Positions 4,589 through 51,782 of a stretch of DNA of 64,000 bases are shown in pieces (the stretch's first letter is position 1; each line of letters starts with the position of its first letter). This stretch comes from Armatimonadota bacterium (lineage in GTDB: Bacteria > Armatimonadota > SYMT01). Under the pieces are notes generated by a model. It did not search any database. It saw only the letters and a program-made list of their open reading frames with translations, and was not told the origin of the DNA. The DNA is taken from contig JAWLHY010000002.1 of assembly GCA_041690135.1 (NCBI GenBank), forward strand, positions 784,342-848,341. Reading direction: 5' to 3'. The translations under genes were made by a program, and so were the position numbers.

Positions 4589-5674
4589 ATGTCGGAAGAA
4601 GCGGAGACCCACGGGCGGTCACGGCGCCTCCTGCTCCAATGGGCCCTGCATACCGCGTTAGGCGGGCTAACGGCCGCTGCCCTGGCCGCAGAAGTGGGGC
4701 TTCCGGAGCATGAGAAACCCGTGGGTCGGCGGGTGCCGCCGGAAGTCGCGACTCTCGGATACCTTCACCGGGAGTGCGGCTTCTCATTCTCCTTCCCACC
4801 GGGTAAGTTCAGCGACCGCCGGAAGGATAACCGGCGCGACATGGCCCGGGCCACCTGGGAGATTCCCGGTCTCCTTCGCGACACGTTCCGCCGGCTCCAG
4901 GCTCCCCCTTGGGCGGCGACCCGGTGGACGATCCGGGACGATGCCGAGCGACGCCGGTTGGCAACCCTCGCCGACCCGGATCGGCTGCGGAAAGCACTGG
5001 CCTGGTTCGAGCCACTGCTGACGGAGTTCGCGGCCGAACTGGAGCCGTTGGGAGGGAACGCCGCGCGCCGGGACCGCCTGCGCGCCGAGGTCCGCGGCTG
5101 GAGTGAGGAGGCGGAAACTCTGGCGGCACGGGTCCGCAAGCACACCGGCCTCCCGACCCCGCGGGTTCCGGGTGAAAAGGAGGTAGAGCGTACGGTTTTC
5201 CAGGACCTTTCGGTGTACCACCCTGCCTATGCCGCTCTTACCTGGTTGGAGCAGAAAGGGCACTTCACCGGCTATCCGGAGCACACCTTCGACAGCCGGC
5301 GAGCGCTCACCCGGTACGAGCATTCCATGGCGCTTCACCGGATGGTTCAATCTCTTAAACGCGTGATCGTTCAGCTTCCCGGCGGTGCTCCGCATACCCT
5401 CGGTAAAGTGGCGCTCGCATCCGGAAGTAGGGTCGTCTGTTCTCCCGGACCGACAGGAGTGCTCCCCGGTATCGAGCGGGAAGCCCAGATCCGTGCGGCC
5501 CTGGCGCGGGAGTCGGGGCTGCGCGGCTTGCTCATCTGGCTTCGCCCACTGGTGGTGGAGTTCTCCGGAGAGCTGGCACTCCTGGGGAGTGACGTACAGC
5601 AAACCCGCGCCGATCTCGACGCGTGGGAGCAGAACGCGGCGGAGATCAGCGCCCGCGCTCGCGTGCGGCGGTAA
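4589..5674 (+). CDS. S-layer homology (SLH) domain protein
   Basis: FQDLSVYHPAYAALTWLEQKGHFTGYPEHTFDSRRALTRYE is an SLH motif; a degenerate second SLH-like unit lies N-terminally. Confidence 0.7.
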   Translation: MSEEAETHGRSRRLLLQWALHTALGGLTAAALAAEVGLPEHEKPVGRRVPPEVATLGYLHRECGFSFSFPPGKFSDRRKDNRRDMARATWEIPGLLRDTFRRLQAPPWAATRWTIRDDAERRRLATLADPDRLRKALAWFEPLLTEFAAELEPLGGNAARRDRLRAEVRGWSEEAETLAARVRKHTGLPTPRVPGEKEVERTVFQDLSVYHPAYAALTWLEQKGHFTGYPEHTFDSRRALTRYEHSMALHRMVQSLKRVIVQLPGGAPHTLGKVALASGSRVVCSPGPTGVLPGIEREAQIRAALARESGLRGLLIWLRPLVVEFSGELALLGSDVQQTRADLDAWEQNAAEISARARVRR

Positions 5675-6010: not shown

Positions 6011-6469
6011 TTGAGACTGGCAGAGGCCCTGGTATTGCGGGCGGATGTCCGCAAACGAATCGAGCAGGTGCGGGAGCGCCTGAAGCTGTCGGCGCTGGTG
6101 CAGGAGGGGGAGGAGCCGCCGGAAGACCCGCAAGAGCTGCTGGCGGAGCTGGATCGCTTACTGAATGAGCTGACCGCCCTGGTCCGCCGGATCAACCGGA
6201 CCAACCTGGAGGCAAGCCTCGCGGACGGGCGCACCCTCACGGACGCCCTGGCGGAGCGGGACACGCTGGCGATCTACCATAACGTTTTGCAGACCACGGC
6301 GGAGGCCGCCAGCCCGAAGCTGGACCGCATGGCCCGTGCGGAGATCCGGAAGGTGCCCACCGTGAAGGTGGCGGACCTCCGGAAGCAGGTCGATGAGGTG
6401 GCGCGCCGCCGCCGGGAGCTAGACACGCAGATCCAGGCGGCGAACTGGACCACCGATCTGCTGGACTGA
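6011..6469 (+). CDS. DIP1984 family protein
   Basis: M(TTG)RLAEAL.LRAD...I.Q..ERL...A.VQEGE.P.EDP..LL, INRTN, and LDT.IQ.ANW.T.L signatures; GGAGG RBS before TTG 6011. Confidence 0.9.
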   Translation: MRLAEALVLRADVRKRIEQVRERLKLSALVQEGEEPPEDPQELLAELDRLLNELTALVRRINRTNLEASLADGRTLTDALAERDTLAIYHNVLQTTAEAASPKLDRMARAEIRKVPTVKVADLRKQVDEVARRRRELDTQIQAANWTTDLLD

Positions 6470-6723
6470 TCCTCCCGCAATTGGGAGCACAAGCAGGTAG
6501 CCGGGAAAGCCGAGAGCCGGGGCACGAGGCGGCGACTGCCCGAGTCGCATCCTGGTCATCCCGAGGAGCCATGGGATGAGGAGGGTTCAAATCCCTCTGT
6601 GCACCGTTACGCTCAGCACCGTTACAGCGGCACCGAGCATCGCGCACTGTCACTACCACGTGCCAGCTACGGCGGACCCGGCGAGGGTGGGATTGGGGTT
6701 TCTTGTGCCCCCGAGAGGATCAG
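6466..6723 (+). ncRNA. Candidate structured ncRNA with tRNA-like domain downstream of DIP1984 gene
   Basis: Closing helices 6466-6474/6715-6723 (9/9) and 6481-6493/6702-6714; T-arm GAGGG-TTCAAAT-CCCTC 6581-6597; hairpins 6532-6548 and 6556-6579; four GCACYG repeats; followed by terminator. Confidence 0.7.
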
Positions 6724-6728
6724 AAAGC

Positions 6729-6763
6729 AGAACAGCCAACCCGCTGGGGGTTGGCTGTTCTTT
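6729..6763. terminator. Intrinsic terminator, probably bidirectional
   Basis: AGAACAGCCAACCC / GGGTTGGCTGTTCT hairpin followed by T residues, between convergent ncRNA candidate and tRNA. Confidence 0.8.
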
Positions 6764-6764
6764 A

Positions 6765-6841
<77 letters not shown>

Positions 6842-6873
6842 TCATCTCCGCTCCGGTTTCCCGGTGCGACCGT

Positions 6874-6902
6874 ATAGTAACACAGTCCCGGAGGGGAGTC
6901 AA
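6874..6902 (-). promoter_or_regulatory. Sigma70-type promoter of tRNA-fMet copy 1
   Basis: TTGACT-17 bp-TACTAT with extended -10 TG. Confidence 0.8.
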
Positions 6903-6950: not shown

Positions 6951-7877
6951 ATGACGCTTGAGGAAGCCCTCGACGAGGTGCGCCGGACGCAAGCGTGCTG
7001 GATCGTGTGGAACGCTGAGACGGGAGAGATCCTGGCCGTCCGGGGCAGTGACCCTGGCGCCGGGCCGGAGGAATACTTCCGGCACCTTCAGGGCTCGAAC
7101 GAATTCGGGGTTCCCACCAAAACCCGGTACTTCGAGTCCGGAAAGGTGACGCGCCAGGTTCTGGAGCAGGAGCGGCACGAAACCGACCGCGTGCAGACCC
7201 GGGTCCGCGTGCTCACCTCCTGGTCCCGGGCGCCCGTGCCGGAGCTTCTACAGGTTCTCGAACGAGGCGACTACCAGCCTCCGATGCAAAAGGATTCCGA
7301 TAGCCGGATCATCGTGGACCACCTGTGGGAGTTGCATCGGGATGAGTTGGTGGGGGCCACCCAACGGCGGCTCCAGGCGCTCCTGGGAACGGAACTCCTC
7401 TGCCCCTCCGCCACGCGCCATCTCGAAGTCTATTTTCTGGCCCTGGCAGGGGAAGGAGGCCCGCTCAAAGCCATCTGGCGCGGTGAGCGTCCCGGACGGA
7501 CCTGTTACGCCGACGTGTTCGTGCTGATGGACTGCTTTGCGCATCTAACAACCTCGGACCGGGGCATCATCGACGACATCACGACTATCGTCGCAGAACC
7601 GGGAATGTTCGGCCCCCGGTTCGAGGCCATGATGACGCTGGGCAGGCTGGGGGCCGTGGCTGGGAAGCGCGCCGCAACGGTGATCCGGGACAGCATTTAT
7701 GACAGCACCCCCGAGATCGCGGCGCAGCGGGATCGGGTCCTGGAGCGGATCGAGGCGGAAGAGGCCGATTGGGCACGGTGCGCCGCCTGCTGCTACGGTC
7801 GCGTCCACAGTACGGAAAGTCACGGCGCCAGACCTTGCCCCAAATGCCTGGGGTTGGGCCACTTGCCTGTCCCCTAA
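6951..7877 (+). CDS. Hypothetical protein with HEAT-like segment and C-terminal Zn-finger (CAAC..G...CPKCLGLG)
   Basis: GAGG RBS, 308 aa, DnaJ-type CxxCxGxG-like motif at the C-terminus. Confidence 0.7.
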   Translation: MTLEEALDEVRRTQACWIVWNAETGEILAVRGSDPGAGPEEYFRHLQGSNEFGVPTKTRYFESGKVTRQVLEQERHETDRVQTRVRVLTSWSRAPVPELLQVLERGDYQPPMQKDSDSRIIVDHLWELHRDELVGATQRRLQALLGTELLCPSATRHLEVYFLALAGEGGPLKAIWRGERPGRTCYADVFVLMDCFAHLTTSDRGIIDDITTIVAEPGMFGPRFEAMMTLGRLGAVAGKRAATVIRDSIYDSTPEIAAQRDRVLERIEAEEADWARCAACCYGRVHSTESHGARPCPKCLGLGHLPVP

Positions 7878-9631: not shown

Positions 9632-9708
<77 letters not shown>

Positions 9709-51661: not shown

Positions 51662-51782
51662 CAGCCCCGGAGGGGCGATAGAAATTAGCCGGGGGTGCAA
51701 GCCCCCGGAATGTGAAACGAGTACTTTTCCAGCCCTGGAAGGGCAGCAGAGGACAGCCTCTGTGACGATCGCGCTGCCCTGG
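51662..51782. repeat. REP-like palindrome cluster
   Basis: GCCCC-GGA-GGGGC, CCGGGGG-TGCAAG-CCCCCGG and GCCCT-GGA-AGGGC hairpins in the intergenic gap. Confidence 0.55.

Follow-up and report, generated by a model that had tools for sequence, protein, structure and literature searches.

A doubly pseudoknotted RNA follows DIP1984 genes across bacterial phyla and may form a ribonucleoprotein with their product

Introduction

Does the DIP1984/DUF6847 protein family have a dedicated RNA partner? A crystal structure has been available since 2009, and members of the family appear in the annotation of hundreds of genomes and of 353 plasmids, many of them small plasmids of Acinetobacter, yet these proteins remain unexplained. 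The question is raised by a stretch of 64,000 nucleotides (nt) from an Armatimonadota bacterium (contig JAWLHY010000002.1 of assembly GCA_041690135.1, positions 784,342 to 848,341; hereafter the window), in which a DIP1984 gene is followed directly by a non-coding element whose ends are complementary to each other. A preliminary description, made from the window alone, read this element as a structured RNA with a tRNA-like cloverleaf and proposed that it forms a dedicated protein-RNA system with the DIP1984 protein. The literature found under the names DUF6847, DIP1984 and septicolysin offered no function and no RNA partner, the septicolysin papers listed being, by their titles and abstracts, genome or plasmid surveys.

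Here we use comparative sequence analysis to identify window positions 6481–6714 (+) as a member of a widespread, uncatalogued and undescribed family of structured RNAs of ~200–240 nt. The RNA is linked genetically to DIP1984, folds in a way that differs from the proposed cloverleaf, and may, together with the protein, have a part in the response to RNA damage.

Results

The RNA is genetically dedicated to DIP1984

The gene at 6011–6469 (+) begins with TTG, ends with a TGA stop at 6467–69 and encodes a protein of 152 amino acids predicted to contain four long helices. Its identification as DIP1984 holds: the protein matches at full length PF20935 (E 1e-53, 181.2 bits, curated cut-off 27) and NF038048 (E 2e-54, 183.5 bits, curated cut-off 70) and, by sequence comparison, PDB entry 3kdq (E 5e-28). 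An AlphaFold2 model (predicted local distance difference test score 93) has the four long helices and superimposes on 3kdq with a template modelling (TM) score of 0.92, and a Foldseek search of the PDB returned 3kdq as the sole significant fold neighbour. The window protein is thus clearly a member of the DIP1984 family with the 3kdq four-helix fold; what is added here is a putative RNA partner for that family.

To follow the element beyond the window, DIP1984 loci were drawn from two samples: the window's own phylum, in which 38 of 401 genomes have a DIP1984 match, and 185,579 species genomes, at least 580 of which encode a relative and from which 80 loci were kept. The kept loci span Armatimonadota, Chloroflexota, Cyanobacteriota, Paenibacillus, other Bacillota, Campylobacter, Deinococcales, Actinomycetes, Gemmatimonadaceae and Abditibacteriia. 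A first DNA search, covering 40 relatives, yielded two distant matches, each directly 3' of a DIP1984 homologue and each with compensatory changes in a T-arm described below. A covariance model built on 20 seed sequences (R1; 198 positions, 34 nested pairs) scores the window element at 142 bits (E 4e-47). Of 100 sources searched, 96 have a match directly 3' of DIP1984 on the gene's own strand, and 93 of these matches are full length. Among the four sources lacking a match, two are contigs that end 125–156 nt past the gene; the other two come from a clade in which the RNA is reduced.

Presence and absence tell the same story. Six of 151 cyanobacterial genomes carry DIP1984 above the cut-off, and these are exactly the six that carry a full-length RNA, which is found in 0 of the other 145; each of the six RNAs begins 14–31 nt after the matched part of DIP1984 on the same strand. 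Within the window's phylum the RNA occurs in 16 of 151 genomes, 15 times beside DIP1984; the exception is the orphan copy of 130 nt described below. The window's genome and five others that were checked each hold a single R1 copy. These data argue very strongly, on sequence grounds, for a dedicated protein-RNA pair, and to this extent bear out the genetic side of the system that had been proposed.

Departures from the one-to-one arrangement were seen at two loci (L labels are our locus handles). At L032, two tandem RNA copies (1004–1206 and 1240–1459, −) follow one DIP1984 gene and are themselves followed by a tRNA-Ala gene. At L118 (2011–2140), an orphan of 130 nt keeps the P2 and P3 helices, the 3' domain and the G box defined below; it has no central domain and no DIP1984 gene, and follows an open reading frame (ORF) of 674 amino acids that looks secretin-like by eye. 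We read this orphan as a probable remnant or minimal variant.

Covariation defines a fold with two pseudoknots

Taken alone, the window element is already unusually stable (single-sequence z = -3.8; none of 100 shuffles was equally stable). Structure was counted on a model-based alignment of 99 distinct homologous rows, which is itself fitted to the nested helices. The full structure has 41 pairs; they fall into 11 helices, and two of these are pseudoknots. Paired cells make up 88.2% as compared to 64.1% in shuffles, with 0 of 500 shuffles as high and slid controls at 28–43%; the covariation score is 0.488 as compared to 0.173 in shuffles, and compensatory changes on both sides occur at 39 of the 41 pairs. 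The two pseudoknots lie outside the covariance model, yet are supported by the pairing counts. A conserved structure thus stands behind other DIP1984 genes, and the RNA is, as first described, structured, non-coding and not a canonical tRNA.

Every strand quoted in the preliminary description is present in the window where it was placed; the pairing partners had in part to be reassigned. The outermost 9-bp helix, CTGATCCTC (6466–74) with GAGGATCAG (6715–23), is borne out as a pair of complementary window strands, the first of which includes the stop codon. The helix inside it, P1, is read directly in the window as TTGGGAGCACAAG (6481–6493) and CTTGTGCCCCCGA (6702–6714), both on the plus strand, and starts 12 nt 3' of the stop. 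P1 also lies outside the model; its mean duplex energy across 80 homologues is 7.05 kcal/mol as compared to 2.58 kcal/mol with swapped partners, in support of the closing helix originally drawn there.

Farther in, GCCGG(G) at 6500–05 pairs with CCCGGC at 6677–82 (P2a, 6500–04/6678–82). The preliminary description had given this partner to a second copy, GCCGGG at 6516–21, and the homologues instead show the first. P2b (6509–14/6667–73) follows, so that the 5' strands of both helices lie within 6500–6514; together these helices (2 and 3 of the 11) are 94% paired with compensatory changes in 10 of 10 pairs. P3 (GGCAC 6521–25/GUGCC 6660–64) closes the core, is 97.3% paired and is compensated at 5 of 5 pairs. 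The 3' strands of P3, P2b and P2a therefore run in that order at 6660–64, 6667–73 and 6678–82 (+). RNAalifold, given a plain MAFFT alignment, recovered P2 and P3 with 17 pairs, all with compensatory changes.

P3 also removes the acceptor-like stem from which the cloverleaf had been built. The columns of GCACG (6522–26) and TGTGC (6598–6602) pair in 15–21 of ~90 rows at three of five positions, and we reject this stem; GGCAC at 6521–25 pairs with GTGCC at 6660–64 instead. The ACCG tail that had been compared with the NCCA end of a tRNA is not conserved among the homologues.

Inside P3, two of the supposed arms turned out to be parts of pseudoknots. The helix GCGACU (6532–37)/AGUCGC (6543–48) is real and compensated (70–72% paired), and is one stem of an H-type pseudoknot, PK1 (6528–6548, +), rather than a cloverleaf arm; its window pairs are read from the sequence, the model alignment being one column out of register here. 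The other stem, GGC (6528–30)/GCC (6538–40), is 82% paired with CG/GC swaps, though absent from the model. Likewise the arm UCAUCCC (6556–62)/GGGAUGA (6573–79), our P5, is 89% paired over 6 pairs, but is not a plain arm: GAGC in its loop (6566–69) pairs with GCUC at 6611–14 to form PK2, which is 95% paired and whose central pair is GC in 38 rows and AU in 24. Both P5 and PK2 rank high in a scan of mutual information with average product correction (MI-APC). Since the arms belong to pseudoknots and the acceptor stem is unconserved, the element is not a four-way cloverleaf.

The third arm, at 6581–6597 (+), does have exact tRNA form: GAGGG-UUCAAAU-CCCUC consists of a 5-bp stem and a 7-nt loop of the UUCRANY type with a closing pair of the G53:C61 type. 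This T-arm helix is 95% paired, and its loop-closing G-C is invariant, at 58 of 58 rows that carry the arm. The arm is optional in the family, a point on which the original reading has to be amended. Beyond it lies a conserved 3' domain (6598–6659, +) with the PK2 partner GCUCA, GUNAC-type repeats and ACUACC at 6652–57. It shows no covarying helices, and the MI-APC scan, which took in this domain, ranked only the known ones. A candidate long-range pairing of GGUAG with CUACC was rejected, as GGU/ACC is invariant and hence uninformative, and changes at the two positions beyond it are uncompensated (AC in 11 and 20 rows).

Together, these comparisons describe an extended stem of P1, P2 and P3, broken by an asymmetric loop that is invariant and has GGUA opposite GAGGGYGGGNNNGGGG. 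The core closed by this stem consists of a compact H-type pseudoknot, a hairpin with a GGRGC loop that pairs to GCYYA farther downstream, the optional T-arm, and ~60 nt that are conserved and apparently unpaired.

Past the element, a GC-rich hairpin of 14 bp (6729–6761) supports the terminator that had been noted there. It is common to the RNA and to a convergent tRNA-Met (CAT) gene at 6765–6841 (−), ~50 nt from the element; its score in the scan is for the minus strand, and its plus-strand side is followed by UUUAU. A second tRNA-Met (CAT) gene lies 2.8 kb from this one, at 9632–9708 (−).

The interrupted closing stem holds an invariant G-rich loop

An internal loop separates P1 from P2. Its 5' side is CAGGUA (6494–6499, +), of which GGUA (6496–99) lies directly 5' of P2a and is invariant in three homologue alignments; its 3' side, facing GGUA, is the G box GAGGGUGGGAUUGGGG (6683–6698, +). 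Of 108 locus rows, among which a few genomes are represented twice, 92 have the G-box pattern [AG]GGGNGGGN2-6GGG ~180–260 nt past the stop codon, and the Gs of the box are invariant in one of the three alignments. The tracts GG, GGG, GGG and GGGG are thus invariant on both strands of one internal loop. Such a layout of G tracts is reminiscent of the G-quadruplex cores of aptamers.

The RNA might on these grounds be the functional part by itself, as a ribozyme or a binder of a ligand or ion, with GGUA and the G box perhaps as a G-quadruplex-like core and DIP1984 as its chaperone or downstream effector. Three to four tracts of invariant Gs on both loop strands, held without covariation, and core residues that are extremely conserved across phyla are what such a role would lead one to expect. 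Against it, copies that lack the G box exist and still lie 3' of DIP1984, and nothing in this analysis pointed to a ligand or a cleavage site; we consider a role centred on the RNA improbable.

The element is neither a known RNA nor a decayed tRNA

A search of the whole window against Rfam 15 at the gathering threshold returned nothing on the element, and E-value scans of 6350–6900 and of 20 homologous loci likewise left it unmatched, so that the comparison with Rfam which had been called for names no known family. Neither ARAGORN nor Rfam RF00005 (29-bit threshold) called a tRNA on 6466–6723, where the only related match was to tRNA-Sec (13.9 bits, E 8.9), and the Rfam scans placed no tRNA on the element in the 20 homologous loci. 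ARAGORN and Rfam also made no transfer-messenger RNA (tmRNA) call on it, and it has no acceptor or CCA end and no tag reading frame. Rfam Y RNA models matched neither the window element nor the 20 loci. Elsewhere in the window, an Acido-Lenti-1 RNA (RF01687) scored 47.5 bits at 51663–51708 (−), above its gathering score.

A degree of tRNA likeness is left. ARAGORN reported a 'tRNA-Val' or 'tRNA-Ala' of 89–91 nt inside the RNA at two loci (L066 1715–1805 and L099 1688–1776; also L150 and L159), and such calls are a likely source of false tRNA annotation in these genomes. Conversely, R1 positions 37 to ~111 weakly match genuine tRNA genes: R1 matches of 17–22 bits over model positions 37 to ~110 were true tRNA genes where checked, and we take six weak cyanobacterial matches, by analogy, to be tRNAs as well.

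Could the element then be a tRNA that has lost its function, for example at a former integration site? The tRNA-type T-arm, the tRNA-Met gene 50 nt away and the ARAGORN calls in two homologues would suit such a relic. However, compensatory conservation extends over at least eight phylum-level groups, no tRNA model scores, the acceptor stem is unconserved and the conserved parts are mostly unlike tRNA; covariation and strict linkage to the gene contradict a relic, and we give this explanation hardly any credence.

Among complex RNAs, OLE (with its Oap proteins), raiA, ROOL and GOLLD are pseudoknotted orphans that came from comparative genomics and whose biochemical function is unknown; some of them lie near tRNA genes or on mobile DNA. 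All four are in Rfam and gave no match here, and the DIP1984 RNA differs from them in being smaller and in standing one-to-one with a single protein family. A likeness to tmRNA and SmpB can also be drawn, in that a small dedicated protein accompanies a pseudoknotted RNA that bears a T-arm. In contrast to that system, the DIP1984 protein consists of helices only, the module is an accessory one of patchy distribution, and its RNA has neither acceptor stem nor CCA end.

The RNA is represented in metatranscriptomes

The gap between gene and RNA, 12 nt from the stop codon to P1 in the window and 14–31 nt from the matched part of the gene to the modelled RNA in the six cyanobacterial loci, leaves little room for a promoter, and we infer that the RNA is made as a 3' extension of the DIP1984 transcript. 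Metatranscriptome contigs from two studies are available for comparison. In the first (run X1), a contig aligns over its whole length to 6481–6670 with 1 mismatch, and its start coincides with that of P1 at 6481; in the second (run X2), a contig aligns over its whole length to 6509–6673 with 2 mismatches. Both runs gave zero cover on the coding sequence at 6011–6465, and runs X3 and X5 left the element uncovered. These data hint that a discrete, stable RNA accumulates.

They also bear on whether the element acts only in cis, as a 3'-untranslated region that stabilizes the DIP1984 message or lets the protein feed back on it. The RNA always lies on the same strand directly after the DIP1984 stop codon, and the outermost helix in the window includes that codon, just as such an element would. 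Its ~200 nt, two pseudoknots, invariant loop and 60 conserved unpaired nucleotides nevertheless exceed the usual needs of 3'-end protection; the contigs of both studies cover the element and leave the coding sequence bare; and a copy in Leptolyngbya lies between tRNA genes, from which tRNA processing would presumably free it. An element without independent function is, in our judgement, unlikely.

The module also travels on plasmids

PLSDB has DIP1984 on 353 plasmids, of which Acinetobacter accounts for 325; the gene also occurs in 4 phage records. On the Acinetobacter baumannii plasmid p2_005078 (L115 2960–3180), a reduced RNA follows DIP1984 in an unannotated gap of 320 nt beside znuD2. R1 misses this copy, which we read by eye; it keeps P2, P3 and GUUAC...ACUACC.

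A mobile, compact, self-contained and patchy module (38 of 401 genomes), flanked at some loci by PIN, HEPN, VapB, DUF262 or transposase genes, invites a reading as an addiction or defence system of plasmids and islands, such as a toxin paired with an antitoxin RNA, or a tRNA decoy that diverts anticodon nucleases. This reading finds no echo in the protein: DIP1984 and both neighbouring ORFs had no match in the PADLOC library of defence proteins, and the fold neighbours found by Foldseek in the PDB include no nuclease-like fold. Most chromosomal neighbours of the module are unrelated housekeeping genes, and the RNA is a single unit 3' of its gene, tandem only in L032. Addiction or defence therefore appears rather unlikely to us.

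Type III toxin-antitoxin loci, in which the antitoxin is a tandem array of RNA repeats that precedes the gene for an endoribonuclease toxin, were considered specifically and rejected on the single 3' RNA unit, the lack of a nuclease-like fold neighbour and the lack of a PADLOC match. In the window, the ORFs flanking DIP1984 (4589–5674, + and 6951–7877, +) have no Pfam family; the first resembles the porin family por_somb only weakly and below threshold (25 bits, cut-off 100).

The module recurs beside RNA-repair genes and in tRNA arrays

In a minority of genomes the neighbourhood of the module has a common theme. In Paenibacillus alginolyticus, one strand encodes in succession RtcB, DIP1984, the RNA, RlaP, RtcB once more and an AAA protein, and a gene for a WCX-domain protein is divergent from these. 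In P. ehimensis the order is Hen1, Pnkp, DIP1984, the RNA and a Band-7 protein, with NADAR and PARG genes nearby; in P. tyrfis, Pnkp lies upstream of the module. An RNA ligase flanks the module in Coleofasciculus and Aphanothece, and RlaP stands beside it in two genomes of the window's phylum, in one of which 8 tRNA genes lie directly upstream.

In Leptolyngbyaceae the module lies inside arrays of 14–15 tRNA genes. Near one such array, in Leptolyngbya sp. PCC 7375 (L140 7011–10862), there are genes for a NADAR protein, an HNH endonuclease and a DDE transposase, and a second module-bearing array (L153) also has a NADAR homologue. The two look like mobile accessory tRNA arrays.

Discussion

It is most likely that the DIP1984 protein and its RNA act together, possibly in the handling of damaged RNA. 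Our leading reading, to which we assign a probability of roughly 0.5, is that they form a ribonucleoprotein like that of Ro60 and Y RNA and tied to RNA damage; we infer binding and function from the association with gene neighbours in ~4 lineages and from partial tRNA mimicry. The RNA would be made as an extension of the DIP1984 message and then persist as a discrete molecule; the four-helix protein would bind it to form a dedicated particle; and the particle would act in response to RNA or tRNA damage. By the logic of Ro60 and Y RNA, as in rsr-yrlBA-rtcBA, the partly tRNA-like scaffold may engage or tether tRNA-directed enzymes such as repair ligases or nucleases.

The likeness to Ro60 (Rsr) and YrlA has several sides. 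The rsr-yrlBA-rtcBA operon has been linked to damaged tRNAs, according to one report (PMC7790460). YrlA, as described in another (PMC4201824), has a GNCGAAN0-1G motif near its 5' end and conserved T and D stem-loops that flank an acceptor-like stem-loop. Both systems place a structured non-coding RNA beside one dedicated protein, and in both long terminal stems close a domain with a tRNA-type T-arm; in some genomes, moreover, the DIP1984 pair is found in operons with RtcB-type RNA-repair genes. A conserved GGCGAG/GCGAAC box before P3 loosely resembles, by eye, the YrlA motif.

The two also differ. DIP1984 is a four-helix bundle of 150 amino acids, whereas Ro60 is a TROVE ring. Unlike YrlA, the DIP1984 RNA contains two pseudoknots as well as an internal loop rich in G, can do without its T-arm, and shows neither a D-arm nor an acceptor-like stem-loop in the YrlA order. 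The sole TROVE gene of the window's genome (299609–300502 of the same contig, C2) is 490 kb from the locus at C2:790k, which is thus not Ro60-adjacent. The comparison with Y RNAs made in the preliminary description has therefore gained RNA-repair operons around the module, but neither a Y RNA match nor an adjacent TROVE gene.

A number of observations weigh against this leading reading. Firstly, RNA-repair genes flank only ~8 of ~100 loci, in ~4 lineages; tblastn with RtcB, RlaP, RNA ligase and Pnkp as queries, which is blind to other families such as RtcA, archease and Hen1, found them in 0 of 20 wider (~16 kb) contexts from the window's phylum and nowhere in the window, and the two RtcB genes and Ro60 of the genome are 300–490 kb off or on another contig. 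Secondly, the enrichment of tRNA neighbours is no more than modest (2 of 20 contexts from the phylum and 6 of 23 others). Thirdly, the T-arm is dispensable, being absent from ~40 of the 99 rows and from both scored plasmid copies (Picosynechococcus and Enterococcus), and the Acinetobacter plasmid copy and one clade of the window's phylum lack the GGUA/G-box module. Fourthly, the X1 and X2 contigs end before the G box and give no RNA ends, strand or level. Finally, apart from 3kdq the Foldseek matches of DIP1984 in the PDB are generic helical bundles with E > 0.1, so that its fold neighbours are uninformative.

A bolder reading, which we hold tentatively and think doubtful, is that the pair is a ribonucleoprotein of an unknown class, neither part of which is related to characterized systems. 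In it, a doubly pseudoknotted and partly tRNA-like RNA, with a core resembling a G-quadruplex, would present or sense the broken ends of tRNA or rRNA for several repair ligases that are unrelated to each other (RtcB, Pnkp/Hen1, Rnl). If this were true, the module would be a general adaptor for RNA repair whose carriers, from Armatimonadota to Acinetobacter, include chromosomes, plasmids and tRNA arrays.

Whichever reading applies, the comparisons point to a well-supported new class of structured RNA, marked by its two pseudoknots, by a T-arm that some members lack and by an internal loop that is rich in G, invariant and unusual. That the module recurs in tRNA arrays and beside RNA-repair systems of three unrelated kinds (RtcB/RlaP, Pnkp/Hen1 and RNA ligase) suggests that bacteria may have a second solution to RNA damage besides Ro60 and Y RNA. 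For the DIP1984 family itself, a complex RNA as obligate partner would supply a lead to function and turn an unexplained protein into a tractable problem in RNA biology.

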